From: an uncultured Gammaproteobacteria bacterium
GTDB lineage: Bacteria > Patescibacteriota > Microgenomatia > UBA8517
Direction: 5' to 3'
Length of the DNA: 55,933 nucleotides
Assembly: GCA_964494885.1 (NCBI GenBank)
Contig: CAZBTH010000006.1
Coordinates: forward strand, 1-55,933
Program-made: the position numbers and the translations under genes
Notes under the pieces: model-generated
What the model was told of the DNA's origin: nothing
Database searches by the model: none
The model's input: only the letters and a program-made list of their open reading frames with translations
Shown here: positions 8,562 to 55,808 of the stretch, one piece after another
How positions within the stretch are numbered: the stretch's first letter is position 1
Layout: every line of letters begins with the position of its first letter

Positions 8562-11500
8562 ATGACAGAACCAGAACCTGGAAATAAGCATGAACTTTTG
8601 TGGCATGAAGGGGCAAACCTCACAGAAGAGGTTGTGACGTTTGCTATTAATTCAAAGGGGCAAGTTCGTGTTGTAAACATCAAAAGGGAAGACTCGGATT
8701 CGGATGTCAATTCAATTCCTGGTGGCTTTGTCGAAAGTGGCGAGGTATGGGGGTCAGGTCACACAGCAAGGAGAGAAGCTGGCGAAGAGACAAAACAAGA
8801 AATAGGTCACAATAAGTTGCAAAGTTTGGGTTCTTGGAAATGTGACGATCCAAGAAATTCAGAAAAAAGATGGATAGAAACGCATGCATTTTTAATAGTT
8901 GAATTTAAGGACGACCTCGAATTAGAAGCCGGCGATGATGCCGATGCCGTGAATTTTCCCCTGCTTGATTCATCTTGTATGGAAGGTAAATTCTACGCAG
9001 ATCACAAAAAAACCGTATTGGAGGCAACAAAAAAACTTCAAGAAATAACCGGTATGACTATTGATGAGGACGGTTTTTTGAAAATGGAAATTCCGGAAGG
9101 GCCGTTTTCCTTCGAGGCAATTGTAGACAAATATGCTGGTAATTGGGAAAATACAGGTCCAAAAACTTTACGAAGAATTTGGGAAAGTTCCGGTGGGGAC
9201 GCGGATAAAGTTGGGCTTGAGATCGCCAAGAGAGAACTTGCTGCAGATGAGCTGGCAAGATCAGAAAAACCGCTTGAAGAATTTTTGGATAATTTTGAAA
9301 AATATTCGAACCTCCTTGATTTTTTAGCAGATGGCACCCAAGGTCCTTTTGGCAGGTTTATCAGGTCCGAACTTTCTCCGCTTGGCCTTTATGTAAGGGC
9401 CACTCCGGACACCTTAACTACACAGGACTATTCTTCGCTTTTTGATAAAGCGGTAATAAGGGTGAGTAAGAATTTAAGTGGAATTGAATTGAATTCAAAA
9501 GAGGAAACCCGTGCCTTCAGGACGGCTGTGCTTTGTTTGGACATTGCCAAGGCGGGAAATGTTGAAGACAGGAAGAGTTGGGAAGGAATAAATACGTATG
9601 TTCACAATGCTGCAAGTGCAGAACTCTTAAGAAGAAACAATGTTTTAAAAGAATTGACGGGGAATGAGCTTTTAGCCGAGTTTTTTATCAAAATGGTTGA
9701 ATACCACGGCTATACTGGCCAAATTTCTCGGGGAGAAGTTACGGAAAGTGTGTTAACAGGGTTAACAGAATGGCTCAAGGAGAATGCTGAAAAGTTGGGG
9801 ATCGACAACCTCCCCACTTTTGCCAGCGAAATTTATTATCAAGTTAATGTTATCGATACCAAATCGGTCCGAGACGGGCTTTTTACAGAAAAACTTGATT
9901 CGGAATTTAAACATCTCAGGGACAAGATGGAGCAGGTTTTGAAAGGCGAAGCGGATTGGTCAAGTGAAAAAATTGAGAATGTTGATAAGAAAAGAGAACT
10001 TCTGGCGGATCGGCTTACAAGACTTAGGGGTGGAAAGGATTATGAGGAAGTTCTGGGTACCTTCTTGGAGCTTGACGATGAAAAAGTCAAACAGATTTTT
10101 GATATTTTAGAACATGCTCAACTTTGGTATGTGGAAAGCGCCACCGCAGGCCTATCTCCGGAAAATCAACTTAAGCTCCTTGTCCTTGCCTCAAAAATAG
10201 CTAAGGAAAAAGGTGTAGATAAATTCGGAAACTTTGATGTTAATTTTGCGGAACTGGTAAATATGCTTAAAACCAAAAAGGTCGAAGACAAAGCCCTTAC
10301 TAAAATTTTGGACACAGCTCTTTACAATTTGAGTTGGGAAAATGTTTTTTCGTCAGAACCGAAATCAGATTCTTCGATAATTTCTATAGCCGGTTTCAGA
10401 ATTCAATTGAGCGGAGAGGGTGGAATCAACGGAATAAAATGCGAACTAAAACCGGAATTTAAAGAGGCGGTTGATTTAATCAATATATATTATTTGGGCG
10501 ATGGGGTTAGAACAAAAGAAGAGTACAAAAAATACCAAAGTGCCTTAAACATTTTAGAAGATGCCGTCGGGATGAAGTTAGACGCATGGGACCGTGGCAT
10601 AGTTGATCAAAAATCTTATGAGGAAGCGATGAATGCCACCGTGGACAGAAAAACGGCCCCTCTTATACCGGAAGTCAAAAGACTTATGAAAGAAAAAGAT
10701 TCCGTAACTGTTGTAGAAATCGCGTCGGGTACCGGAAGAGCAGGATGGATTCTCGCTAACAACATGAGAAGGAGCGATAAAGTTATAGTAACCGATGTTA
10801 GCCGTGTTATGTATGAAGGTTTAAAGAAACTGTCGCGGGTCAACAAAGCCCAGAGATATATTGATCCAGAGGCACAAATTGCCGAGATAATCGCTTTCAA
10901 TTTAGACGCCAGAAATTTGACCCCTGAGAATTTGGGTACTAGTAATATAGATATGATAACTGCTTCTTCTGTTGATCACGAAATTGATAGTTACATAGAT
11001 AAGACATCTGGTCACGGGCAGGCCCTTCGTAGTATTTATAAATCAGCCTTGGGCCTACTGAACGAACCCGGGCAAGTGTTTTGTGACCGTGATTTTATTC
11101 AAGATGACAACCCTCAACAAAAAGTTAATTTTAGAATCGGTACAGAGAATGATGGTGATAAACCCCCGCTTCAATTTTTTAGGGACTTTGTTAAAACATT
11201 TGAATTGTTTACCAAGAGCGAGATGGAAGAAATTGCTAGCTTGCCAGAGGTTGTAAGTGTGGGACAGACGTTATTACTGTCAAAATCTTTAATTTCAGAA
11301 ATATTGAGTCACTATAGTTGGATGAAAGATGGTGGAAGTCTCAAAGAGATGGATGAAAGACATACCAGAGACGATAGGGAAGGACGCAGAAAATTTGTTA
11401 TGGATATTGCCACAGAAATGGGTATAAAGATTGAGGTAAGTTTTGACATGGAGGACCCCGAGTATGCAAAATTTAACATCGGAGAATTTGAAGTTTTAGA

Positions 11501-23759: not shown

Positions 23760-24404
23760 ATGTTTGGAACAAAAATTTTGGAAGAGCGAAAATCTAAATT
23801 TAATGGGGATGTCCGTGTGGTTAAAACTTTTGGAATGGGAATTTATATCACTTCTCAAGGTCTTACACAGTCAGGAGGAATAGTCGAAGACATGTGGAGA
23901 TCGACCTTGAGAAAAATCAAAAATCAAAAATCAAAAATCAAAAGTTGTTTGGTACTGGGACTGGGAGGGGGGACTGTGGCGAAATTAGTTAGAAAAAACT
24001 GGCCGGAAACAAAAATAACCGGTGTGGACATAGACCCCTTAATGATTGAGCTAGGTAAAAAGTATTTAAATTTAGATAAATACGAAGTTAATACAATCGT
24101 AGCAGATGCCTCAAATTTGTCCAATCTGCCGAATCTGTCAAATTGGCCAAAAGCCAAATTCGATTTGGTAATTATAGATTTATATCAAGGTGACCAGTTC
24201 CCTAAGAAGTTTGAAAATTCTTCCTTTTTAGCCTCTGTAAGGCGAGGCCTTGCGGAAGTTGGAGGGATTGCGGTGTTTAACAGACTTTATTACAAAGAGA
24301 AAAAGGTGGACGCAGAGGAGTTTGGGAAAAAACTTAAAAAAGTCTTTAAAAATGTTGAGTCCTTCCGACCCGTTTCTAACATAATGTACTTATGCAACAA
24401 TTAA
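23760..24404 (+). CDS. SAM-dependent methyltransferase, spermidine-synthase-like
   Basis: LVLGLGGG, GVDIDP, DLVIIDLY motifs. Confidence 0.82.
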   Translation: MFGTKILEERKSKFNGDVRVVKTFGMGIYITSQGLTQSGGIVEDMWRSTLRKIKNQKSKIKSCLVLGLGGGTVAKLVRKNWPETKITGVDIDPLMIELGKKYLNLDKYEVNTIVADASNLSNLPNLSNWPKAKFDLVIIDLYQGDQFPKKFENSSFLASVRRGLAEVGGIAVFNRLYYKEKKVDAEEFGKKLKKVFKNVESFRPVSNIMYLCNN

Positions 24405-25840
24405 TACTTGGCCCGGCGCTGTTTTATGATTTGCCTGAATATTTGAATATTGTTTCAAGCCACCCATTTTTCCAGGTCTTTTCGCTTGGCCATTTTCCTA
24501 TCCACCCGGTGTTTGTGGCCATTTTGTGGCTTTTGACAAGGGGCCCCCTTGTCAAAGCTCCTATTCCTATCAATGTGATAGCGATGGTTTTTGGAATAAT
24601 TTCAATTTTTGTATTTAATAAAATATCAAAATTAATTTTCAAAAACGGACACTTTTGGTTGGCAACTATTATTTTTACGCTCTTTCCGGCAGTTTGGTTA
24701 ATAAATACTAATTTGATGGTTGAGTCGGTGACTTTAACCCTTTATCTTGCGGGACTTTATTTCTTTTTAACGAAAAAAGCGATGCAATTTTTTATTAGTT
24801 TATTTTTAATGACCGGAACCCACCTGCAGTCTATTTTTTGGATCCCGGCATTATTTCTTGCTCCCTATATTTTTGAGGTAAATTTCAAAAAGGAGGATGT
24901 TATCAAATTTATAAAAATCGCTTTGGCCGGAATATCAATGTCCATTGTTTTTTACATTCTCTTATATTATTGTTCCGGCAGAATTCCGGGGGGTACAACT
25001 GAGCAACTCTCAACATATTTATCTTCGGGAATATTACGAATGATTAGAAACATTTGGCTTTCTTTTATCCGTAATTTTGGGACGCTTACACCATTTGTTT
25101 TGGCTTTAGTTTTGATCAGAAAAATTAAGTCGAAAAAGGTATTAATAGCCTGGATAATGTTTCTGGTTCTAGTCGCGACAATAGGCGCCAACTGGCAAGG
25201 GGACTTTATGGGTAGGAGAATTATTTTTTCGGGGGTAATTTTAGCACTTGGTCTTTATAAATATTTACAGAAATGGTCCGTCTTTTTCATTTTGTATTTA
25301 TTACCGATCGTCGCAGCAAATGTGATTTTGTATTCAAACTCCAGTCCGTTCATAACTCCAAATATCCCCAAAGGTCAGGTGTTAATTGAAACGCACTACC
25401 TGAAACCTTTTACAAAATATAACGGAACAATTCTTTGGATTGGCGAAAGTGACCTTGGTGTTATCGACAATTATTTAAAAAATGGAACAAGAGTATTTTT
25501 AACCGAACAAGCTATCACGGCTCCATATTTACTCTTAGTCGGACAAAATTACCATATCACTTCACTGGGGAGGGTTGGTGATTCGGAATCAAGATTTCTG
25601 TTCAAAAATTACACAGTTGAACAGTATAACGATAGCTTCGAGTTAAAAATGTTCAATGGAGTAGTTTCCGGTGAGGCGGGGAGTCCGGTAATTTACTACG
25701 ATCAAAGCTTTTGGGGGAGACTCGCGCGCCGAAGAATCGACTACGGAGATATTGGAACTTGGCTTTGGGCAATCACGGTAAACCACCGCGACCCGATCGG
25801 CTGGATTTACAAAGACGCGAGAGGTATGGTTGCCTATTGA
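24392..25840 (+). CDS. polytopic membrane protein, GT-C glycosyltransferase-like
   Basis: About 10 TM helices, D..EY loop, HP motif, C-terminal soluble domain. Confidence 0.6.
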   Translation: MQQLILGPALFYDLPEYLNIVSSHPFFQVFSLGHFPIHPVFVAILWLLTRGPLVKAPIPINVIAMVFGIISIFVFNKISKLIFKNGHFWLATIIFTLFPAVWLINTNLMVESVTLTLYLAGLYFFLTKKAMQFFISLFLMTGTHLQSIFWIPALFLAPYIFEVNFKKEDVIKFIKIALAGISMSIVFYILLYYCSGRIPGGTTEQLSTYLSSGILRMIRNIWLSFIRNFGTLTPFVLALVLIRKIKSKKVLIAWIMFLVLVATIGANWQGDFMGRRIIFSGVILALGLYKYLQKWSVFFILYLLPIVAANVILYSNSSPFITPNIPKGQVLIETHYLKPFTKYNGTILWIGESDLGVIDNYLKNGTRVFLTEQAITAPYLLLVGQNYHITSLGRVGDSESRFLFKNYTVEQYNDSFELKMFNGVVSGEAGSPVIYYDQSFWGRLARRRIDYGDIGTWLWAITVNHRDPIGWIYKDARGMVAY

Positions 25841-25853
25841 CAACATATACTAG

Positions 25854-25874
25854 TTAGTGTATATACTACAATTA
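25854..25874 (+). promoter_or_regulatory. putative NrtR operator overlapping the nrtR promoter
   Basis: TTAGTGT-ATATACT-ACAATTA downstream of TTGACA (25837). Confidence 0.7.
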
Positions 25875-25876
25875 GT

Positions 25877-26533
25877 ATGAAGGATTCAAAAACATTTGCA
25901 GTATTAGCCACAGACGTTGCGGTTTTGACTATCGACGAAGGTGTTCTTAAGGTTCTTTTAACCCAAGCGACATCAAAAAACTTTAAGGGAATGTTAACCT
26001 TGCCCGGAGGTTTAGTCGGCCATGAAGAACGGACGGAAGAAGCCGTCGTAAGGATTCTGGAAGAAATAATGACCAAGACGGATTATTACAATGAGCAACT
26101 TTATACGTTTGACGATCCGGGTAGGGACCCCGAAGGTAGGGTGGTAACGGTTGCTTACTTGATGTTGGTTTCGGGGGATGAGGCTAAAAGAATAACTAGA
26201 AAGGACGCTTCGTGGCACGCTGTGAAAACTTTGCCAAAACTGGCCTACGATCATAACGAGGTCGTAAAGACCGCCGCAAAAAGGCTAGCAGGGAAATTGA
26301 CCTACACAAATATTGTTTATGCCCTAATGCCATTAGAATTTACCCTGTCCGACTTGCAAAAAACTTATGAAACCGCACTGGAACTCTCTTTGGATAAAAG
26401 GAACTTTATTAAAAAAATAAAAAGCTTGAATCTTATCGAAAAGACTACCCATAAGGTTGAGGGTAGTGCACACCGCCCGGCAACCCTTTACAGGTTCAGG
26501 GAGCGAAAATATAAGAGGGTTGACTTATTTTGA
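25877..26533 (+). CDS. nrtR: NrtR-family transcriptional regulator (degenerate NUDIX + wHTH)
   Basis: LPGG, EQLYTF..P.RDP.GRVV.VAY, LAYDH, FTLSDLQ..YE, DKRNF, HRPA.LYRF motifs. Confidence 0.9.
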   Translation: MKDSKTFAVLATDVAVLTIDEGVLKVLLTQATSKNFKGMLTLPGGLVGHEERTEEAVVRILEEIMTKTDYYNEQLYTFDDPGRDPEGRVVTVAYLMLVSGDEAKRITRKDASWHAVKTLPKLAYDHNEVVKTAAKRLAGKLTYTNIVYALMPLEFTLSDLQKTYETALELSLDKRNFIKKIKSLNLIEKTTHKVEGSAHRPATLYRFRERKYKRVDLF

Positions 26534-26576
26534 AAAATACCTATAATACGAAGTTGATGATTTTTGAGCACTTTAG

Positions 26577-26597
26577 TTAGTGTAAAACACACATTTT
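26577..26597 (+). promoter_or_regulatory. putative NrtR operator upstream of the vWA operon
   Basis: TTAGTGT-AAAACAC-ACATTTT; shares TAGTTAGTGTA with the other two sites. Confidence 0.65.
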
Positions 26598-26737
26598 CAG
26601 GATTGAAATGAAGGTTTTTCAGAAAAATCTTCTGACAATTTTTAATTTGTACTTTAACAAGTGAAGAGTATTAAGAAAATAGCCATGGGCGGTTGTTTTC
26701 CACATTCCATATCAAAGATTCAATAAAGGAGAATCAT

Positions 26738-27850
26738 ATGGGCGATCATAAACATACTAAACAGTTTGATGCAGGTGCATATCGGTCGACAGTTAGAGCG
26801 ATGCGTGCCGCTAACGAGGACGTATTCGCAGAGGCACAAAAGGTTCAAGATGAAACCGGCAGGCTTCACCCCAACGTTGACATTCAGGGTAAACCATCTC
26901 GGTTTAGCCACAACGCTTTGGAGCCAGGGGATGATGGCAAGTTTGTTTTGAGTCAGGGGATCTCCCTGCCGATCCTGAGTGAGTTTGATACTACGGGTAG
27001 CACGGCTCATTGGTTGGAGGACTTTTTCCACACAGCCGAGAGGCAATATATGCTCTTGGATGGGGTGCGAACTCGTTACAACCCTCAGTTGTCAACCGGG
27101 GCTGTTTGTGACACCTACAATGTTCGTCAGAGTGGAATCCCCGTTGTTCAGTGTTCGCAATTTGAATCGAACAACGAAAGCGCGAATCAGGTTCGTTTGA
27201 TCCTTCCTGCCAGTATGGGCAACGATACTTCCACCGAAGACTATCAACTTGCGCTGTACTATGCCACGCTCATCAACGCTGACTTTTGGCAACTCTACAA
27301 GTTGAAAGGTTATCTTACCTTGGCACTTGACGAAATCGGCCGTGAACCTGTCACGAGATCAGATATCAAACAATATCTTGGTCAGGAAGGCGATTTTCCG
27401 GAATTGGATGTGAAAGGAATCAGCGAAAAGCTACTCGAACACTGGCATTTCTTTATTCTCCAGGTCCCTACAGGTGGTTATGGAGGAATGCTGAAAGAAA
27501 CCACTCAATGGTGGACGCGCCGTGTTGGACAGGGTCGGGTAATTCAGGTTGAAGAACCGCGGCTTTTGGCGGATGTTCGTGCGGCATTAATCTACGCAAC
27601 AGAAGCGGTCAAACCGACTTTCAAGGGTTATACCCAATTCATGAGAGCCGGTCGCGATATCAAGCTTAATGCGGCTGATCTCAATCTGGTTTGGCGCATG
27701 ATTCAGCCGGCTGAGGAACATTTCAGCGCCCAGGCAAACTTGCCGGGTTACGATGAAATTCCGCTTCCGGGCGACAAATTTGCTCACTACCGCCACGCAT
27801 GGCCGATTGACCATCCGCGCGCGAGTGAAAACGTTACACCCGTCAAGTAA
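26738..27850 (+). CDS. divergent vWA-domain protein
   Basis: MIDAS-like FDTTGS, GN...EDYQLALYYA, KGYL....DE motifs; SD aaggag. Confidence 0.7.
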   Translation: MGDHKHTKQFDAGAYRSTVRAMRAANEDVFAEAQKVQDETGRLHPNVDIQGKPSRFSHNALEPGDDGKFVLSQGISLPILSEFDTTGSTAHWLEDFFHTAERQYMLLDGVRTRYNPQLSTGAVCDTYNVRQSGIPVVQCSQFESNNESANQVRLILPASMGNDTSTEDYQLALYYATLINADFWQLYKLKGYLTLALDEIGREPVTRSDIKQYLGQEGDFPELDVKGISEKLLEHWHFFILQVPTGGYGGMLKETTQWWTRRVGQGRVIQVEEPRLLADVRAALIYATEAVKPTFKGYTQFMRAGRDIKLNAADLNLVWRMIQPAEEHFSAQANLPGYDEIPLPGDKFAHYRHAWPIDHPRASENVTPVK

Positions 27851-27888
27851 TCCTATTTCAAAACATAAAGATATGAAGGAGAAACAAA

Positions 27889-28887
27889 ATGAACGATGAA
27901 CTGAAAGCTGAACTTAAAAGTCTTGGTTTGACAGACGAACAGATTACCGCGATCGGGGAAAACCTTGGTGTGGTCTCCCGTGAGGACATGACGTTCGTTA
28001 CTGTCGAAATGCTGACGGAACTCAAGCTGAAGCCGATTGCGGCTGCCAAAGTGGTCCGTCATTTCAAGACCTCCGATGTCGCAACCACCGCGCCACTCGG
28101 CGAGAAGCCTTCCAAGGCAGACGTCGAGTCCTACGCCAAGAACATTGGGATGGATTCAGGAATGCTTATGGCATTCATGTTCGCGAACGCAGGCAGTGGT
28201 GCCGGGCTTGAAATGGACCTGAGTTCATTTATGCCTCTGGGCCCCATTGTGGCAGGCTATAGCCCCAAGCGCCGCGACATGAGCCTCATGGTCATGGGCC
28301 AGATCGAACGCCGCCTGGAAACTCCCATTGTTATCATCAACGCCGACGGCTCCGTAAATGCTGCCCTGACCGAAAAGTACATCCTCTCCCTGGAGGAAGG
28401 CTTTGATCCGGCAGAGGACGCTGTTTTCTACGATGAAGATGGCTCACCCTACGAGGTGGTTCGCGTTGGTGTGGATGCCCAGGGCATTTACGACGCCGAC
28501 CCGATTGACTCAACCCGTGCGCTTCAGCAAAACGGAATGGGCATCGGCCGCATCAACTGGCACAGTGTGCCTTTGGAGGTGCGTCAGGTGGCCTATTTCG
28601 CGACCCGCTCCGGCGAACTTTCGGCTGGTGATGAATCGAAGCTTCAGTGGCTTCGCACGAACATCAAGCCCGAAACCAAACGACTGGACCTGCGTAGCGA
28701 GTTCCCCAAAGCGATCGGCATGTTCAATGAAGCCAACCGCACGGGCTCTCTGCCTACACTGCGCGTTACGCTTGGTCGTGGCCCCCGCCGCAAGGAAGTT
28801 ATGCCTCGGCGCCGGCTCAATAGTGGTCCTCGTGACCTGTCCGGTCTCAAACGCATCGTTGGCGATCCCGGCGATCCCGATCAGTAA
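27889..28887 (+). CDS. hypothetical protein with N-terminal SAM/HhH-like helical domain
   Basis: LKSLGL...LGV....D...VT.EMLTELKLKPIAA.K pattern; strong SD. Confidence 0.75.
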   Translation: MNDELKAELKSLGLTDEQITAIGENLGVVSREDMTFVTVEMLTELKLKPIAAAKVVRHFKTSDVATTAPLGEKPSKADVESYAKNIGMDSGMLMAFMFANAGSGAGLEMDLSSFMPLGPIVAGYSPKRRDMSLMVMGQIERRLETPIVIINADGSVNAALTEKYILSLEEGFDPAEDAVFYDEDGSPYEVVRVGVDAQGIYDADPIDSTRALQQNGMGIGRINWHSVPLEVRQVAYFATRSGELSAGDESKLQWLRTNIKPETKRLDLRSEFPKAIGMFNEANRTGSLPTLRVTLGRGPRRKEVMPRRRLNSGPRDLSGLKRIVGDPGDPDQ

Positions 28888-28900
28888 TACTCTTCACCTC

Positions 28901-28991
28901 GCTCACTAAAGTGAGCAAACGAGCAGATTGAGCTTACGCTCCGGTTTGCGGGAGAATTTATTTTTTTAAATTCCCCGCAAACCGCTGCTCG
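28901..28991 (+). other. structured RNA: hairpin plus three-way junction
   Basis: GCTCACT/AGTGAGC; CGAGCAG/CTGCTCG enclosing GAGC/GCTC and CGGTTTGCGGG/CCCGCAAACCG stems. Confidence 0.7.
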
Positions 28992-29061
28992 AAACCTATA
29001 TGGATTAAATCCACACTGACGAGTTCTGTTTAAACTCAGTTTAAAAAAGAACGAAAGGTTT
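28992..29061 (+). ncRNA. type III hammerhead ribozyme
   Basis: Stem III AAACCT/AGGTTT, CUA cleavage site (after 28998), stem I TATGGAT/ATCCACA, CUGACGA core, stem II GTTCT/AGAAC, GAAA. Confidence 0.85.
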
Positions 29062-30501
29062 ATGAAAGAAAATGAAAAACATTTTGGAATTGTTAACGGT
29101 ATCGGAATTGGAGAAGAAACAAAAGGTAATACCGTTCAAGCATTGGTTCGTGAGTTAAACGCCCACACTGTCTGGCGATCCGGTAGTTGGGTGGGAGGGC
29201 ACCATATAACTCACGATGATGACCGTGAAGCTGTACTCAATCACTTCGGGGCGGGGGTGTTTGAGGGTGCAGATACATACCTAAAACACATGGTGGTTAA
29301 CCCTGTGGTACTTTTTCAGGAAGCCCTGAGACTTGAGAGTCTGGGTATCCTAAGCCCACTTCAACGTATAAAAATTGATGAAAGTTGTATTGCTTCAACA
29401 CCATTTCATAGCGCAATAAGCCGAGCCAGGGAAATTCTTCGTGGAGAAAACAAGAAAGGTACCATTGGACAGGGTGTTGGTGAGGCCATTAAAGATTCTA
29501 TTGAATCCGAACTTACTGTCAGGGCTGGAGAATTTTCGGACAGGCAAATTATCCTCATGAAAGTAGAAAACATCAGATTGGCAAAACTTAAAATAGTCGA
29601 GCAATTAATTGCCGATCATAAAGGTTCAGTGCCGGAGGAGGTCTATGCCGAGGTAGAAGTGTTGAAAGACAATGATTTAGTTGGGGTTGTGGTTGATAGC
29701 TTTCAATACATTTCAAGCCTGGTTAAAGTGGTTGATAGTCGCTATTTAAATACATTGTTGAGTAGGGGTGGCTCAATTGTAAATGAAGTTTCGCATGGGG
29801 CTCTCCATCATCCAAGATATGGATTTTTACCTCACATTACCCAAATAGATCCGACTTCCCAGGACGTTTTAGCTACGGTTAGGGCCAATAATTATAATGG
29901 CAAAATTATGCGTATCGGAGTAGTCAGAAGTTATCTGACCAGACATGGCGCGGGGCCACTAGTGAGCTTTGATCAAAAGTTAACAGACTCTCTTATATCA
30001 GTAGAAAAAGACAATAACGGGGCAAATGAATGGCTGGGCGCGTTTAGAATTGGGTATTTCGATGTTGTTGCACTGAGATATGCATTATCAATAAGTGGTG
30101 GAAGCAAGGCGTTTGGTGGAATATTTGTGAGTTATTTGGATATTCTTTCCAAGAGAAAAAATTGGCCAGTTGTTGAAGCTTATGAGTACGATGGCAAAGA
30201 AAACGGTTTGGATGATTTCTTTATTATTGAAGGTAGTAAAATCACAGGGATTAAGCTTCACCCCGATATGAATAAAAGTGAACACACGGCTCATCAAATT
30301 CAACTAACAAAACTCCTAAATGAGTGTTCTCCTATCACCACCACCTTGACTCCGACGGAAGAAAAAACACTTGAGCAAGTATTCTTACGATATGTTGAAA
30401 ATAATCTTGGTGTGCCTGTTATTGGAACCGGTTACGGACCTAAAGTAACGGACAGGCATTTTATCCCTCAGTGGCAAAATAATTTAAGACAAGTCGGGTA
30501 A
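29062..30501 (+). CDS. divergent adenylosuccinate synthetase (PurA)-like protein
   Basis: GEETKG P-loop, GHH, GTIGQGVG, YLTRHGAGP, RIGYFD, LDIL, GYGP motifs. Confidence 0.85.
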   Translation: MKENEKHFGIVNGIGIGEETKGNTVQALVRELNAHTVWRSGSWVGGHHITHDDDREAVLNHFGAGVFEGADTYLKHMVVNPVVLFQEALRLESLGILSPLQRIKIDESCIASTPFHSAISRAREILRGENKKGTIGQGVGEAIKDSIESELTVRAGEFSDRQIILMKVENIRLAKLKIVEQLIADHKGSVPEEVYAEVEVLKDNDLVGVVVDSFQYISSLVKVVDSRYLNTLLSRGGSIVNEVSHGALHHPRYGFLPHITQIDPTSQDVLATVRANNYNGKIMRIGVVRSYLTRHGAGPLVSFDQKLTDSLISVEKDNNGANEWLGAFRIGYFDVVALRYALSISGGSKAFGGIFVSYLDILSKRKNWPVVEAYEYDGKENGLDDFFIIEGSKITGIKLHPDMNKSEHTAHQIQLTKLLNECSPITTTLTPTEEKTLEQVFLRYVENNLGVPVIGTGYGPKVTDRHFIPQWQNNLRQVG

Positions 30502-32322
30502 AAAGACCCTGCTTAAGAATAATTTTGTAGCCACCCTTCTATAGCCAGGATCCCAATAATCGCTTTTCCAGTCTATTAAATCTGAGTTTTTTGTATTTAG
30601 CCTGACGATACGTGGGTAAAATTTTCTATATCCCTTATGCATTAATCGATACTGTAGGACATCAAGCTCCAACTGTCCGAGAAGTTGACCTCTAATTTCT
30701 TGTTTTCTTTCCTCGTCATAAGGCAAATATAGATATTTTGTAAGAGTGTCACTGCGAATCTTCTTAAAATCAAGGCCGTGTCCTATCCAAATTCCACCCA
30801 TAAGAAAGTGGTTCTGATTATCTCCAACAATGGTTCTGGTAATTTCCTTAGGTACCTTAAATCCAAATTTTTCATTTTCCTGTGTTACCCAAAACTCAAG
30901 GAATTTGTGAATTTTGGCAAGTTCTGGGAAATCTTTGCCTAAAATTTCCAGGGCTTTTTGTCTATCTTCAAACTTTGCTTCAGGTCTAAAGAATATTGCC
31001 GCGTCAAAATCAGCGTCCGAATCAGCATAAAGTTTTATGCGTGATCCAAACAGCAAGAAACTGGGATATAGAATTTTTGATAGAAGCGGGTGATTTTCTA
31101 TCTTTTTTGCGGCATTTGATAAAATTTCTGTTTCTTCGGATATATACTTATTGTCGAAGATGTCAGAAGAGGTTAAATCTGTTAAATTTATTTTGAGTTT
31201 TTGTAAGAATTCCTTTTCAACTATTCCAAATCTGACCCATCTGTTTAAACCTCCGATCACGCAATTCTTTACTTTTGGATCATTCAAGGCAAATATAGCC
31301 TGAACCATGTCTTTAATGTCCAAAGCAAATTCTTTTGCTTTTTTAGGATTGGTTTTAGCAAGGAATTCTCCGGTTTCTATAACTCCCAGTACAACCACTT
31401 CGGGCCTGCCTTTATTGGCTAGTTCGTGTGGATCTAGGCCAGCAACAATCTTTTTTGACAATACTTCTGCCTCTTTTTCGTTTGTTGATTCCTCCGCTAG
31501 CGATCTTAACCACGCAGCTCTATGCGTACTTATTTTTGTCGAAGTAGGATCGTCCCAATATTTTTCTCTCGTGGTCGAAGTGTTTGTCATTTTCCCAAAT
31601 TTTTTCTCAATTACAGCATTGATTTTACCTAAATAGTTCTTATCAATAAGGCCCCTATCGATCGAGACAATTGCTCCTTCAGCCACGGATTTTAGAAATA
31701 GCTTATTTTTTATTGATTCTAGGAGCGTGTAAATATCCCTTTCTGTAATGATTCCTAAAGCAATTAGCTCTGGGGTAAGATGTCCTGCTTTGCTGATTCT
31801 TTCAGGTTCAGGCAGTCCTGGTTCTAATATGTCCCCGTCTACGAAATTTGCTCTAGGTTCGTGTTGAAAGAGAAGCTCTATCCAATGTTTTCGGTATAAA
31901 TCTGCCAGCCTCTGACCTGAAGCGGACAAATGATCGGAGGGAGATTCGTGTTTATGTATGTTTGGCAGTATTTCGAAAGGCAGATAAAGAAGAATTCTTG
32001 CATTGTTTTCGTCCCGTTCCAGGAAATCAGATATGCCGCTCCATAATTCTGCCACATCAGATTCTGTTACCAGTCCTCTTTTCATAGCTTCCTCTATATC
32101 GAGTTCAGGATCTGGGGAGGTTTCAAATATACGATCGCAGAGGTTGTAAAGGTTTCTTCTTTCTTCAGCCTGTTCGATCACTTTTGAGTTTGAGACGACC
32201 TCTTTGGGTAGATTATGATTACCTTCTTTTCTGGCCATAAAGAGTTCGATAGAAATTGGGGGTAAAACATTGGGGGACATAGAGTCTCTCTCTATTTTTT
32301 TGTCAGGGTGAATTTTTTCCAT
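30484..32322 (-). CDS. large protein with a C-terminal Pol-beta-type nucleotidyltransferase domain
   Basis: LFGSRIKLYADSDADFDAAIF (GS...DxD) plus a downstream acidic residue. Confidence 0.65.
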   Translation of the reverse strand: MEKIHPDKKIERDSMSPNVLPPISIELFMARKEGNHNLPKEVVSNSKVIEQAEERRNLYNLCDRIFETSPDPELDIEEAMKRGLVTESDVAELWSGISDFLERDENNARILLYLPFEILPNIHKHESPSDHLSASGQRLADLYRKHWIELLFQHEPRANFVDGDILEPGLPEPERISKAGHLTPELIALGIITERDIYTLLESIKNKLFLKSVAEGAIVSIDRGLIDKNYLGKINAVIEKKFGKMTNTSTTREKYWDDPTSTKISTHRAAWLRSLAEESTNEKEAEVLSKKIVAGLDPHELANKGRPEVVVLGVIETGEFLAKTNPKKAKEFALDIKDMVQAIFALNDPKVKNCVIGGLNRWVRFGIVEKEFLQKLKINLTDLTSSDIFDNKYISEETEILSNAAKKIENHPLLSKILYPSFLLFGSRIKLYADSDADFDAAIFFRPEAKFEDRQKALEILGKDFPELAKIHKFLEFWVTQENEKFGFKVPKEITRTIVGDNQNHFLMGGIWIGHGLDFKKIRSDTLTKYLYLPYDEERKQEIRGQLLGQLELDVLQYRLMHKGYRKFYPRIVRLNTKNSDLIDWKSDYWDPGYRRVATKLFLSRVFLPDLS

Positions 32323-32577
32323 GGCCAGGGATTTTAACACAAACGAGGCCGAAAGTCAAGGCTATAGGTCTACTTTGATTATTTGTCCGATGAAGCCGGC
32401 TGGTTAACGCTTTTTTTGAAAAAATTCTATCGGGAGGCCCATAAAAGTGGTAAATTTAGCCTCGCTTGAGCCTTTTAACAACTTCGCGACCCCTTGATTT
32501 ACAGTCTCCATAATCTGTTCAGCAGTTTTTTCGAGGAATATACTCCTCTTACTCGAGTTTGCAACTCTCGCAAGAGA

Positions 32578-33099
32578 TTATATACTCGAAATTTTTGTTT
32601 GCTGGTGCAAACTCAAGTTTCTTGAGTATATGTGTGAGCTGTATTCGTTTGCTAGTAAAGCGTTTCTGTATTCTCCGGGCTTGTAGTAGTTGGTGTATCT
32701 CAAAATAAAGATTCCGTCATCTTCAAAATCTTTGGTGTTTTTAATATTTCCATTTGTCGTAAATATTGGTTTTTTGTTTTTCAATTCGTATGTGAAATAA
32801 GTTGTTGGAAAGTTTCTTCTATAGATTGTTATGGCTCCATCCGACTTAAGAACTGCGTCGCCATCGACTTGCGAGTGTGCTAGAAGCAATCCTGTCCTTT
32901 TTTCACGCAATAAGAACATTAAGTCGTCATGTTTTACCAGTCTTTTGAGTGTTTGATCTATAAATATTTGCCTGGCCAATTCAGCTTCATTCTTTTGTTT
33001 TTCTCTGTTGACATCTTCGCCGGTAGTCACGAATTTGGCATCAACAGGGATTGCTTTTAATTTAGATCTAAGGGCATCAAATTGTTGGTTAATTTCCAT
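32578..33099 (-). CDS. hypothetical protein (possibly truncated)
   Basis: Promoter TTGACT-17-TATTAT 6 nt before the ATG; frame stays open for about 57 codons past the stop. Confidence 0.55.
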   Translation of the reverse strand: MEINQQFDALRSKLKAIPVDAKFVTTGEDVNREKQKNEAELARQIFIDQTLKRLVKHDDLMFLLREKRTGLLLAHSQVDGDAVLKSDGAITIYRRNFPTTYFTYELKNKKPIFTTNGNIKNTKDFEDDGIFILRYTNYYKPGEYRNALLANEYSSHIYSRNLSLHQQTKISSI

Positions 33100-33224
33100 G
33101 CGGGCATAATACAGCATTTTCCCTCAAAAGTCAAGGCTATAGGCTACTATAAGCTTTGCTTATGAGGGTATTGTATAATGGCAAGTTCTCTTCTTTTGTG
33201 CCTAAAAAAGAGTACACTAAAGGT

Positions 33225-34154
33225 ATGGCAGAAAGAATTGTAAAAACTCTCGAAGAAAGATCACCTGAAGGTCAGAAGATATACGAGACCAGTATGGAAC
33301 TAAGCGCGGGAGATAAAGAGAGGATAAGACCTTTTATAAACTCTGATGGAGATATTCTTGATTTAGGAGCTGGAGCCGGACCAATTACACAAAGATTAAG
33401 AATTTGGTTTCCAGACAGTCATGTAGTTGCCCTTGATCAGTCGGGGTATATGATTAAAAGGCTCAGTCAACGTTTTGCAGGCGACCCGAATGTGGAGGTT
33501 GTTCAAGCCGATGCCAGAGAATTTAGGCGTCCAAAACCGTTTAGTACGATAGTGGCAATATCATTTTTTCACGAAGTGTTTTCTGGAAGTAATTATAATC
33601 ATGAGGCTGTGATTGAGACGATAAAAAACGCTGAATCTATGTTAGAAAAAGAAGGCCGCCTGATTATACGTGACGGCGTTCAGCCGGAGCATGAAGAATT
33701 ATACCTAAGACCCATAACACAATTCGCAGTCGATAGATTTCAAAAATTTGTAGCAGGATTTGGTAAAGTGCGACCGGTAAACTATACGATTGGCAATTTC
33801 CACTCAGATGTTTTTGTCCAAAGAGGAAGGGCTTTTCAAAGTGATGATGTTGGTAAGTCGTTAATCGAGATTTCATCACAATCTGCCAGTGAGATGTTTT
33901 CTAAATATTTTTATGCAGAAGAAAACTTGCCGGTAGAACTTTCAGAACAGTTTGGAATTTGGACCCTCAGGGAATACCAGAAAATACTTTTAGAATGTGG
34001 TTTTGCTATTGTACACGCAGAAACCTATGCTCTTCCTTGGCTAATAGAAAATCACTACTCCAAAGATTGGGAAGTATTCCATTTGAAAGATGGGGTTTTG
34101 AGTAATGCTCCATATCCACCAAGTACAATGCTTCTGGTTGGAGAAAAACAATAA
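33225..34154 (+). CDS. class I SAM-dependent methyltransferase
   Basis: ILDLGAGAG, FFHEVFS, LIIRDG motifs; same subfamily as the C-terminal domain of 8562..11567. Confidence 0.88.
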   Translation: MAERIVKTLEERSPEGQKIYETSMELSAGDKERIRPFINSDGDILDLGAGAGPITQRLRIWFPDSHVVALDQSGYMIKRLSQRFAGDPNVEVVQADAREFRRPKPFSTIVAISFFHEVFSGSNYNHEAVIETIKNAESMLEKEGRLIIRDGVQPEHEELYLRPITQFAVDRFQKFVAGFGKVRPVNYTIGNFHSDVFVQRGRAFQSDDVGKSLIEISSQSASEMFSKYFYAEENLPVELSEQFGIWTLREYQKILLECGFAIVHAETYALPWLIENHYSKDWEVFHLKDGVLSNAPYPPSTMLLVGEKQ

Positions 34155-54023: not shown

Positions 54024-54944
54024 ATGAACGTCACTAAAAGGATCGTTTCCCTGTTTTTGCTAACAATGTACGTTCTATCCGCGTGCGGAACCAAGGCTTC
54101 TCAAGACACGGTCCCGGCTCTGCCGAAACTTGATCCTGTTGCGATTTTGTCCCAGGCGCGGACCTACTACAAGGGTGGCGTTGATCGTGAGACCAACATC
54201 ACCGTTCTGTGGCGAAAGTATGAACTTTCGATGAACACGTTCCGTCTCGGTGCGAAGGATTTGATCGGTGCGGCCAACGCATGCTCTACGAGCGTCGCCT
54301 CGACTGAGTCAACGATCGGCAATGCAGTTACCGGTAATATGGATGGCGATGCCATTTTCTCGGCGCTTGTCACGAACAGCGTCTCCGGCGAACAGGCCAC
54401 GACCGAATGTACGCAGATTTTCCGTCAGCTTGCCGATTACATCGTCGCTAACCGCGCCGCTGTACAGAATGCCAATCTCATGGCGTTTGAGGCCGCTACG
54501 GACTACATGAACTACACCAGTTCCTTCCCAGAGGTCGATTTTATGAATGATCTCATGCAAACCTACGGCGATACCACGCTGGTCTACCAGAAATTGGCAG
54601 ACAATGGCGTCGGTGTTTCCGATTGGAGCTGGCTCCCGACAGCGAACCTGTGGGTCAGCCATCAGGATAAGAACTTGTGTCAGTACTACATCAGTGGCGA
54701 GTTTATGCAGAACATCTCTTACTCGTCCAAACTGAAGTTCACCGGACATGAATCAGCGCTTGCCCGTCTTTACGAGAGCACCTGGAATCCTGCGGCCAAC
54801 GGTGGCAACGGCGAATGTCGTATGACCCGCTATGCGGCCCTTGAGTACATGACCCGCAGTATTGTGGGCGCTGATACTCAGCAGATCATCGAATCTGGTC
54901 AGGACCAGGGACTTTTCCCTGCCACTCCGACAGCGACGCCTTAA
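54024..54944 (+). CDS. lipoprotein, possibly LemA-like helical bundle
   Basis: Lipobox LSAC; helical region resembling LemA-like proteins; SD aaggag. Confidence 0.75.
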   Translation: MNVTKRIVSLFLLTMYVLSACGTKASQDTVPALPKLDPVAILSQARTYYKGGVDRETNITVLWRKYELSMNTFRLGAKDLIGAANACSTSVASTESTIGNAVTGNMDGDAIFSALVTNSVSGEQATTECTQIFRQLADYIVANRAAVQNANLMAFEAATDYMNYTSSFPEVDFMNDLMQTYGDTTLVYQKLADNGVGVSDWSWLPTANLWVSHQDKNLCQYYISGEFMQNISYSSKLKFTGHESALARLYESTWNPAANGGNGECRMTRYAALEYMTRSIVGADTQQIIESGQDQGLFPATPTATP

Positions 54945-54957
54945 TTGGAGAGACGAG

Positions 54958-55662
54958 ATGAACATTTTGAATTTCGTTTTCTACCCTGTTTTGGTAATCC
55001 TGTTCAGCCTGGCCGCGGCGTTTTCGTTTCTGAGCAAGAACAACAAAGACGCTCTGCTTTCGTCCAATCGTGACGGTCGCGATCTTCTGGTAATTGGCCT
55101 CGGGCTTGCGCTCTTGGGCGTGCTTGTCTCATTCCTGGACTACACTGCGGCACGTATGCTCGTAGGTATTGGTTTTACCTTTGTCGCCTTCGGAACCGTC
55201 ATCCTGGTTGACGACTATTACACCGATCGGTTATTCCAACCAGTTTTTGGTGTTGTGTATACCGTTTTGGCGTTTCTGGTCTACCGCGCAGGTTCTCTGG
55301 GCACTCAGGTTTACAATCCTCACGCGCTTGTTACCCTCGCTGTTCCCGTTGCCATGGCCACCCTGTTGGCGACCCTCTCGGCTCTCGCATTTGCGTCGGC
55401 TGATTTCAAGGATCGTCTCGATCAGCAAAATGGCGGATGGCTTTTCATCGTCCTGGGTTTGGCGGCTGCGATACTTTCGCCCTTTACTAATAACCCGGCT
55501 CTGATCATTGCCACAGCCAGTATCGGCGGCCTACTCTTTACTTTGGGCCTCTTGATCGCGGTTGACCAGAAGGATGCTCTCGGCGCTTTGAACAAGGCAA
55601 AGATGCCTGTATACGTGCTGATTGCAGTGCTTTTGCTCGTAGGCGCTCGCCTGTTTTTCTAG
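54958..55662 (+). CDS. polytopic membrane protein
   Basis: About 8 TM helices with internal repetition; SD ggag. Confidence 0.8.
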   Translation: MNILNFVFYPVLVILFSLAAAFSFLSKNNKDALLSSNRDGRDLLVIGLGLALLGVLVSFLDYTAARMLVGIGFTFVAFGTVILVDDYYTDRLFQPVFGVVYTVLAFLVYRAGSLGTQVYNPHALVTLAVPVAMATLLATLSALAFASADFKDRLDQQNGGWLFIVLGLAAAILSPFTNNPALIIATASIGGLLFTLGLLIAVDQKDALGALNKAKMPVYVLIAVLLLVGARLFF

Positions 55663-55756: not shown

Positions 55757-55808
55757 GCAATCTGCAAATAAATTTTTGCACTGATGAGTCCAATAAGGAC
55801 GAAATTGC
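55757..55808 (+). ncRNA. type III hammerhead ribozyme
   Basis: Stem III GCAAT/ATTGC, AUC cleavage site (after 55762), stem I TGCAAA/TTTGCA, CUGAUGA core, stem II GTCC-AATAA-GGAC, GAAA. Confidence 0.9.

Follow-up and report, generated by a model that had tools for sequence, protein, structure and literature searches.

A conserved hammerhead ribozyme motif adjoining the start codon of a PurA-family gene in Patescibacteria

Why would a bacterial gene begin directly behind a self-cleaving RNA motif? The question is raised by a 55,933-nt contig (CAZBTH010000006.1, assembly GCA_964494885.1) of an ultra-small groundwater bacterium, analysed over its whole length and called the window below. In it a type III hammerhead ribozyme motif (28992-29061, + strand) adjoins the ATG of a gene (29062-30501, + strand) encoding a divergent PurA-family, adenylosuccinate-synthetase-like protein of 479 aa. 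A preliminary description of this DNA had proposed that stem III of the ribozyme sequesters the start region of the gene and that self-cleavage may gate its translation. We favour, with a probability of roughly 55%, a related reading in which the element is a functional processing ribozyme between the cistrons of an accessory operon, while a gate on translation is plausible as a secondary effect. The source genome is 1.14 Mb in size and 95.6% complete, and relatives of its proteins carry the Patescibacteria labels Daviesbacteria, Woesebacteria, Roizmanbacteria and Shapirobacteria.

A type III hammerhead in front of a PurA-like gene

Read as RNA, positions 28992-29064 consist of AAACCU-A, UAUGGAU-UAA-AUCCACA, CUGACGA, GUUC...GAAC, GAA, AGGUUU and AUG, all on the + strand. 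Hammerhead cores are conventionally numbered from C3 to A14, with the pair 15.1-16.1 and H17 beside the cleavage site. In this scheme every invariant core position is present, C3-U4-G5-A6-N7-G8-A9 in CUGACGA (29016-29022) and G12-A13-A14 in GAA (29053-29055). The 5' strand of stem III, AAACCU (28992-28997), faces the 3' strand AGGUUU (29056-29061), with A29056 and U28997 forming A15.1-U16.1. H17 is A28998, an A and not a G, and cleavage is predicted between A28998 and U28999. Stem I (28999-29015) has seven positions, one A.C mismatch at 1.2-2.2 and a UAA loop, and stem II (29023-29052) contains the G10.1-C11.1 pair. The three core-adjacent pairs, U1.1-A2.1, G10.1-C11.1 and A15.1-U16.1, are all standard, leaving no mispair beside the core. 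The preliminary description was right in all its hammerhead coordinates, and the core elements that it listed are confirmed: CUGACGA, GAA followed by A15.1, a CUA site and three stems.

The minimum free energy (MFE) structure of 28992-29064 is a type III three-way junction (-14.7 kcal/mol, z -2.25; 3 of 200 shuffled sequences were as good) in which loops cap stems I and II and stem III stays open, and the centroid structure concurs. The fold persists in a 216-nt context, beside a very stable upstream structure (z -7.5). A strict descriptor scan found three sites in the 1.14-Mb genome, the present one included, against one in total in ten shuffled genomes; hammerheads were accepted by the criteria quoted in the accessible text of Perreault 2011 (PMC3088659). 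R1, our own covariance model, was built from relatives only, with the window sequence left out. It scores the element at 31.7 bits (E 5.5e-8 over 235 kb), or at 21.1 bits with filters off (E 1.5e-5 over 10 kb), and finds no second match at E <=1 in 24000-34000 in the latter mode; the cluster in the window holds one hammerhead. By these sequence and folding criteria chance is excluded, and 28992-29061 is confirmed as a genuine hammerhead motif.

Standard annotation misses the element because RF00008 scores lie below the gathering cut-off. RF00008 is the best ribozyme match, at 18.9 bits against a gathering score of 48.5 (E 0.12 over 241 bases); the other relaxed-E Rfam matches around the site are microRNA or small nucleolar RNA noise, and a whole-window scan at the gathering score returned tRNA only. 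In its full core, its G10.1-C11.1 and A15.1-U16.1 pairs, its H17 and its open stem III the motif resembles the type III hammerheads of RF00008 (clan CL00010). It is unlike usual hammerheads in having a CUH cleavage triplet rather than GUC, in its Patescibacteria hosts and in its sub-cut-off Rfam scores.

The element recurs at the same position in distant relatives. We aligned 48 PurA-like homologues and took loci from genome contigs (15) and metagenome contigs (19). After the removal of duplicates (L035, L036), loci without upstream sequence (L011, L020, L029) and a spurious fragment (L039), 28 evaluable loci were left; the contigs of the nearest PurA-like relatives (P0002-P0005, 67-75% identity) lie outside this sample, as do most of the roughly 88 close PurA-like homologues, which are on Logan contigs. 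A homologous hammerhead stands just 5' of the PurA-like gene in 24 of the 28, fully parsed in 23 and degenerate in one (L026, 34.8 bits). The fully parsed copies end 0-20 nt before the PurA-like ATG, taken as the first in-frame ATG 3' of the ribozyme, and the proteins encoded at these loci are 41-63% identical to that of the window.

The helices are maintained by compensatory change. In an ungapped MAFFT alignment of 17 sequences 95.2% of cells are paired, against 83.4% in shuffles, with double changes in 8 of 16 pairs; the covariation score was reached by none of 500 shuffles, a test that kinship may inflate. A model-fitted alignment of 35 sequences, which leans towards the structure, gives 95.8% paired cells and double changes in 13 of 16 pairs, against 29-58% paired cells in slid controls. 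Fast hammerhead cleavage at cellular Mg2+ requires a tertiary contact between loops I and II. Two loop combinations recur: a GUGU loop on stem I with AAAA on stem II, and a UAA loop on stem I with either an extended stem II or one whose loop is 5 nt long. The latter is found in the window, L006, L022, L023 and L038, with L007 as an exception, and the recurrence is suggestive of loops I and II co-varying.

A flanking hairpin and long-range arms

A large branched hairpin (28920-28991, + strand) ends directly beside stem III, with a gap of 0 nt, and the 90 nt upstream of the hammerhead have a folding energy of -46.5 kcal/mol (z -8.0). Among the 24 non-redundant parsed loci, all 21 with 90 nt of upstream sequence have a strong hairpin on the 5' side of stem III, at a distance of 0-11 nt; L007, L028 and L030 are too short upstream for this fold and were not counted, and L007 shows the hairpin in a separate analysis. 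The near-duplicate of L034, L036, likewise has it. That this hairpin is an intrinsic terminator was ruled out, as no U-tract follows it. A second, small hairpin, GCUCAC-UAAA-GUGAGC (28901-28916, + strand), has similar counterparts in L006, L007, L022 and L037.

Right after the upstream stop codon stands a conserved single-stranded motif, UAAUACUCUUCAC (28885-28897, + strand; family consensus AACACUCUUCAC), which doubles as the 3' arm of a long-range complementarity. Its partner, the 5' arm GUGAAGAGUAUUA (26661-26673, + strand), lies in the 5' untranslated region (UTR) of a gene for a VWA-like protein (26739-27850, + strand). The arms are complementary at 13 of 13 positions, are separated by 2211 nt and would form a duplex of -18.2 kcal/mol; they bracket the VWA-like gene and a gene for a 332-aa protein (27889-28887, + strand). 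Arm homologues occur at matching positions in L006 (10 nt), L009 and L013 (12), L022 (13), L025 and L034 (14) and L023 (13/14), and by our own reading of the sequences L017 pairs over 12 nt with one G.U. The arm sequence is different in L016 and L027 with complementarity kept, it is likewise replaced yet still complementary in L025, and the 332-aa units of L018 and L019 carry yet another complementary pair. Duplex energies across loci range from -14 to -23 kcal/mol.

The statistics of these helices come from our own scripts and cover 16 loci. Inverted matches of at least 12 nt were found in 7 of the 16, compared with none for direct repeats, two for reversed strings and none for the complement alone. 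Mobile-element terminal repeats and operator sites were considered as explanations of the arms and are disfavoured, since the arm has been replaced but remains complementary in L016, L025 and L027. Pairing at the level of RNA is favoured over a DNA-level repeat because an upstream hammerhead precedes the 5' arm in L027 and L017, where the arm is hence transcribed. The arm pairs, with equivalents in at least 10 related loci, suggest a closed-loop mRNA unit.

Two further conserved elements accompany the arms. GNACWUUAACAA lies directly 5' of the 5' arm, whatever the arm sequence (window 26649-26660; L006 262-273; L018 423-434; L022 408-419; L023 454-465; L027 675-686), and may mark a transcription start or be a site of processing or of protein binding. 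A TGnTATAATATAGG-like box together with UUCAUACUAUCRAU is conserved 3' of hammerheads that precede 332-aa-type genes (L019 1361-1500, L026 969-1100, L018 4995-5150). UUCAUACUAUCRAU is the 5' arm of the 332-aa unit. The arrangement hints at internal promoters behind some hammerheads.

Proposed intercistronic processing and its alternatives

The cluster transcript likely starts at a promoter-like site, TTGACT-16-TATAAT (26520-26547, + strand), which has 11 of 12 consensus matches. Consensus scans, on which all our promoter and terminator calls are based, detected no other + strand promoter-like site between 26548 and 29062 and no + strand terminator-like site in 25800-30700. On the evidence of these scans the VWA-like, 332-aa and PurA-like genes are probably co-transcribed. 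RNA made from the promoter near 26520 would then carry, in order, the VWA-like gene, the 332-aa gene, the hammerhead and the PurA-like gene, and would cut itself constitutively between A28998 and U28999. The upstream mRNA would end in ...AAACCUA, 7 nt beyond a very stable hairpin and bearing a 2',3'-cyclic phosphate, and its 3' trailer (28885-28897) could pair with its own 5' UTR (26661-26673). The PurA-like mRNA would start with a 5'-OH at U28999, and its 63-nt leader would hold stems I and II, then GAAAGGUUU, before the AUG. The halves of stem III should separate after cleavage because their duplex is weak (-5.0 kcal/mol in the window; mean -4.7 over loci), which would leave the last 9 nt before the AUG single-stranded. 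In this scheme the main effect would be to make the PurA-like cistron independent of the upstream cistrons in stability and translation, with exposure of the start as a secondary effect. Behind this reading stand the intact core and fold, the conservation and covariation of the element, the kept gene order, the hairpin, the complementary arms, the weak stem III duplexes and the sites of other hammerheads; cleavage, co-transcription, the fate of the two products and any effect on translation are inferred. The earlier suggestion that cleavage would detach the PurA-like cistron from those upstream is supported, and in six loci (L010, L017, L018, L019, L026, L027) a second hammerhead brackets the upstream cistrons.

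A stronger role for the start region had also been proposed: the 3' strand of stem III and the core GAAA would form the Shine-Dalgarno (SD) or landing site, cleavage would license initiation, and only processed mRNA would be translated. As the principal function of the element we find this doubtful, albeit with a fair amount in its favour. Its geometric premises hold. The stem III 3' strand directly adjoins ATG 29062, and the gap is <=8 nt in 19 of 24 non-redundant loci with no other SD-like sequence between; GAAAGG is the sole SD-like sequence near the PurA-like start and is complementary to CCUUUC in the 16S rRNA 3' tail (...CACCUCCUUUCU). The last GG (or GAG) ends 3-8 nt from the ATG in 18 of the 24 loci by our own count. 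PurA-linked hammerheads have a GG in the stem III 3' strand in 23 of 24 cases, other hammerheads of relatives in 4 of 23, and in the former the GG is retained despite register shifts (AAGGC, AAGGA, ACGGG); the strand is biased towards purines overall, with 60 G to 3 C as compared with 25 G to 19 C elsewhere. The PurA-linked copies are orthologous, so that these counts are not independent and Fisher tests on them overstate the case. Genes of the cluster otherwise use canonical SDs, the first cluster gene having AAGGAG in most of 20 loci, and the hammerhead-less loci L032 and L018 have AAGGAG or AAGGA at the matching place. In E. coli, synthetic devices with an SD concealed in a hammerhead stem operate in this manner, according to the available part of PMC7445771.

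Set against this is the spacing. The GG lies 3 nt from the ATG in the window, 3 nt in L010 and 1 nt in L009, against a genomic AAGG peak at 8-10 nt; the complementarity of GAAAGG to 16S rRNA (...CCUCCUUUCU) is itself present. In five of the 24 loci the gap is 15-20 nt with no other SD. SD use is weak genome-wide, a 4-mer SD preceding 94 of 878 genes (10.7%) against 64 of 878 (7.3%) in a control window. Cluster hammerheads 54-307 nt from the next open reading frame (ORF) carry AGG as well, which marks AGG as a lineage trait. Modelled accessibility, which considers secondary structure only and ignores tertiary stabilisation, predicts a modest unmasking of the start region. On cleavage the predicted unpaired probability of the stem III 3' strand rises from 0.15 to 0.47 for the window and, averaged over loci, from 0.26 to 0.47. 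For positions -12 to +3 the corresponding increase is small, from 0.41 to 0.50 for the window and from 0.52 to 0.57 for the average, and stem II would still close 10 nt before the AUG after cleavage. Nothing suggests regulated or conditional cleavage, and a gate would be at most a constitutive licensing step.

Several observations weigh against intercistronic processing at this locus, and a number of them would fit a different account, in which the family is real but the window copy is a decaying relic that cleaves inefficiently, the gene being expressed from read-through or uncleaved RNA. Under R1 the window copy is the weakest of its family, at 31.7 bits as compared with 34.8 for the degenerate L026 and 37.9-81 for the others; its stem I contains the A.C mismatch at 1.2-2.2, its position 17 is A, and its stem II has a long A/U-rich insert. 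Further in favour of a relic, a sharp G+C break falls at the hairpin/hammerhead boundary and suggests recombination, and L008, whose upstream genes are the most similar (73-78% identity), lost the hammerhead and kept the hairpin. U4 is changed to C in L013, which belongs to the same genus, and in the upstream copy of L017, while the L019 copy has U.U at 10.1-11.1; some orthologous copies thus do not look active, to judge from their sequence. The hammerhead is absent at 4 of the 28 loci (L008, L018, L032, L033), and the element is therefore dispensable in some lineages. RF00008 stays under its cut-off at the window and at every related locus tested (18.9-39.2 bits against 48.5); canonical relatives too fall short, at 35-39 bits, and the sub-threshold score is a limit of the model, not an absent core feature. 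The co-transcription on which processing depends is read from a consensus promoter scan. One search of sequencing runs listed no RNA run that contains this stretch. A 5'-OH can protect an mRNA or target it for decay, and the 5'-OH product of the glmS ribozyme in Bacillus is reportedly degraded by RNase J1. In this genome, which encodes RNase J, the direction of the effect on the 5'-OH PurA-like mRNA is unpredictable. A relic nevertheless seems quite unlikely: none of the invariant core positions or of the three core-adjacent pairs is damaged, the MFE structure corresponds to the active fold, and the UAA loop with an extended stem II is common to L006, L022 and L023, which points to a natural subtype and not to damage.

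The conserved motif and hairpins at 28885-28991 might also make up a sensor or protein platform that switches the hammerhead, or that selects either the long-range helix or a pairing with the core. Hammerheads of two different contexts have the motif AACACYCUUCAY conserved at 35-142 nt on their 5' side; where they are not linked to a PurA-like gene, the motif pairs locally with UGAUGAGAAG, which mimics the ribozyme core, and by our own reading ACUCUUCA is partly complementary to the core UGAnGAGU. In PurA-linked copies, however, N7 is U or C and places a mismatch at the centre of the motif-core pairing, and pairing with the 5' UTR arm is much stronger. On these two counts ACUCUUCA-core pairing was set aside as an off switch. 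No riboswitch or other Rfam family matches the region, and the wholesale replacement of the arm in L027 and L016 with complementarity kept speaks for a plain helix over a specific sensor. Regulation of this kind is, in our judgement, very improbable. Fainter still is the chance that the hammerhead-bounded units are mobile or circular RNAs, their ends joined by the arms and ligated as in retrozymes and viroid-like RNAs. Two same-strand hammerheads do bracket arm-bearing units in L027, L017, L019 and L018, and the inner three pairs of stem III (CCU/AGG) are common to cluster hammerheads. Yet the cluster in the window has a single hammerhead, RtcB was not found in the 95.6%-complete genome, and the units, far from being repeats, are protein-coding mRNAs of 2 kb whose chromosomal synteny is conserved. 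Perreault 2011 (PMC3088659) sought circular or spliced products of clustered bacterial hammerheads, and the accessible text reports that none was found.

Intercistronic processing may also be one instance of a broader design, a conjecture to which we give rather low odds. Patescibacteria would build modular closed mRNA units, each made of a 5' arm, one or two cistrons, a 3' arm, a clamp hairpin and a hammerhead that makes the 3' end in place of a terminator or a protein RNase. In the PurA-like case GAAA and stem III would in addition be the ribosome-binding site (RBS) of the next unit, with self-cleavage licensing its translation. If true, this would give chromosomal bacterial hammerheads a defined biological role, and synthetic hammerhead RBS and RiboJ designs would for the first time have an equivalent in nature.

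Precedents, neighbouring genes and further hammerheads

RiboJ is an engineered hammerhead insulator with a type I scaffold that is placed in a bacterial 5' leader and standardises the ribosome-binding region. Synthetic hammerhead RBS aptazymes, as described in the accessible part of PMC7445771, also use a type I scaffold, with the SD inside an extended stem I, and are often ligand-controlled. The present element resembles these devices in lying in a bacterial 5' leader where cleavage would free the ribosome-binding region and remove upstream context. It is unlike them in being natural and of type III, in having a GAAAGG that spans core and stem III, and in showing no evident ligand domain. The glmS ribozyme likewise sits in a bacterial 5' leader, where the stability of its 5'-OH product sets gene expression (PMC6765202, available sections); it is like the present case as a self-cleaving RNA in a 5' leader, RNase J being present in this genome, and differs in its fold and its dependence on a metabolite, no hint of a cofactor being seen here.

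Clustered hammerheads of prophages, in the available text of Perreault 2011 (PMC3088659), bracket genes or short blocks and were proposed to cut transcripts into gene-length mRNAs, cleavage having been shown for comparable bacterial arrays; both there and in the accessible part of a review (PMC6765202), clustered hammerheads of bacteria are proposed to process polycistronic RNA. Some of the loci studied here are like these arrays in having several hammerheads around single genes or short blocks. The PurA-linked hammerheads are unlike them in occupying one orthologous position, next to proteins 41-63% identical, whereas the genes flanking the arrays "are not constant" in the text available to us, and in adjoining a start codon, with a 5' hairpin and long-range arms. 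The same text describes HHphage of the haloviruses HF1/HF2, a hammerhead 13 nt upstream of a helicase start codon (PMC3088659). That element too is a natural hammerhead directly 5' of a start codon, and it differs in belonging to an archaeal virus, in being a structurally variant hammerhead and in its single gene context, with neither an SD overlap nor an operon setting described in the text available to us.

The ribozyme class, clustered bacterial hammerheads and one start-proximal archaeal-virus hammerhead were known already, going by the available text of PMC3088659. What is apparently new, as a matter of sequence, is a hammerhead that combines orthologous conservation and a place inside an operon with a clamp hairpin, covarying 5' and 3' arms and a stem III that abuts the start. 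Our literature search returned no paper joining the hammerhead with Patescibacteria, the candidate phyla radiation or Microgenomates, and no relevant literature joining it with adenylosuccinate synthetase; such an association may be listed in the tables of Weinberg 2015 or Roth 2014, or in the supplementary data of Perreault 2011. The locus offers a rare, well-defined case for testing what bacterial hammerheads do. It is a constrained natural example, with one orthologous position across deep divergence, a fixed hairpin, covarying arms and, in most loci, a start 0-8 nt from stem III.

The PurA-like protein had been called a PurA paralog. Membership of the family stands (PF00709, 138 bits, profile positions 1-348 of 416), and the protein aligns with homologues from residue 1. 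It is the sole PF00709 match in the genome, though, and scores far below the NCBIfam equivalog cut-offs (TIGR00184, 95.4 bits against 395.55; NF002223, 110.4 against 402), from which we take it to be a family member, not a PurA equivalog. The gene is sporadic, occurring in 2 of 61 genomes sampled among relatives. As a single query at E 1e-20 it (P0001) gave no match, and matches came from a profile search.

Around it tblastn outlines a conserved Patescibacteria module of a 385-aa VWA-like protein, in four loci the 332-aa protein, the hammerhead, the PurA-like protein and a 618-aa protein whose gene is usually convergent. The ORF of the VWA-like gene, also filed as unk385, is listed from a TTG at 26693, and its true start is probably ATG 26739, behind AAGGAG. 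The 385-aa protein has an invariant D-G-T-G-S motif and is in synteny in most loci. Its structural model (predicted local distance difference test, pLDDT, 89.5) matches integrin beta I-like and VWA domains in Foldseek, with E ~1e-6 and a modest template modelling (TM) score of ~0.38. Neither it nor the 332-aa protein matches a Pfam or NCBIfam family. The 332-aa gene, for which no family was found, lies in a G+C-rich stretch (56% against ~40% for the genome), and among related loci its homologues were found by tblastn in L008, L009, L018 and L026 only. G+C content is 49-56% at 27000-29000 and ~40% in the rest of the contig, and the break coincides exactly with the border between hairpin and hammerhead. 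Acquisition or exchange may account for the 332-aa gene and the 3' part of the 385-aa gene, for which the closest match is L008 with 73-78% protein identity.

The gene for the 618-aa protein (30484-32340, - strand) is convergent to the PurA-like gene. The protein is helical, with a Pol-beta-type nucleotidyltransferase motif near its C-terminus, where weak MntA/Polbeta matches (residues 429-464) coincide with a conserved GSRxKG...SDxDxA. Sequence searches of the PDB gave no match for it or for the 385-aa protein, and Foldseek on its model returned helical-repeat noise with no informative whole-chain match. In L034 (2881-6189, + strand), as also in L036, homologues of the PurA-like and 618-aa proteins share one frame of 1102 aa, listed by the ORF finder from a start inside the hammerhead; this and the synteny mark the two as functionally tied. 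The two genes are co-directional in L012 and L016, and homologues of ~700 aa exist (P0052, P0057). These features flag an accessory module in which a VWA-like protein is combined with a PurA-like ligase and a nucleotidyltransferase-like protein, the latter two in one frame in one lineage. Upstream of the cluster lies a gene for an NrtR-like Nudix and winged-helix regulator (25877-26533, + strand), with a homologue upstream in L013 and L008. PADLOC, run on the cluster, reported a weak Nudix match on this regulator and otherwise nothing.

The genome holds two further hammerheads. One (window 55757-55808, + strand) is a more canonical type III element with 39.2 bits under RF00008 and 43.1 bits under R1. 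It follows the last ORF (54862-55662) and stands between a hairpin of the 17-bp class (z -9.1) on its 5' side and another hairpin at the contig end, with no gene after it within the contig. The other (L040; contig C16 of genome G000, 9500-9550, - strand) scores 76.7 bits under R1 and lies ~100 nt upstream of rpsO. A hairpin adjoins it, GGUGCU-AAUACCC-UUCAUCAA...UUGAUGAG-A-AGCACC, whose 3' arm mimics the ribozyme core, and hairpins of the same type stand beside the hammerheads of L045, L049, L050, L053, L059 and L065. In several non-cluster hammerheads the local hairpin GGUGCU-AAYACCC-UUCAUC...GAUGAG-A-AGCACC adjoins stem III.

R1 matches occur in at least 22 of 151 relatives and, across the phylum, in at least 18 of 151 sampled genomes, these counts being lower bounds under strict filters, and usually number one or two per genome. 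Rfam-threshold annotation misses a hammerhead lineage that is present in ~12-15% of sampled Patescibacteria genomes. The other hammerheads of this genome and its relatives occupy intergenic leaders or precede terminators: non-cluster copies in relatives lie 13-386 nt before the next listed ORF of at least 60 aa, in four cases no such ORF occurs within 400 nt, and in four a terminator-like hairpin comes directly after the ribozyme. In L052 and L061 the hammerhead lies 25-27 nt upstream of an ORF that, from the look of its N-terminal sequence, is a putative peptide chain release factor 2.

Same-strand pairs ~390 nt apart were seen in two genomes, G014 (contig C5, 2856-2907 and 3249-3299; L065 and L050) and G111 (contig C11, 4576-4627 and 4967-5017). 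The G014 pair brackets an 86-aa ORF that looks hydrophobic by eye, and the G111 pair a different frame of 61 aa. The first hammerhead of each pair has the unusual core CUUGAAGAG.

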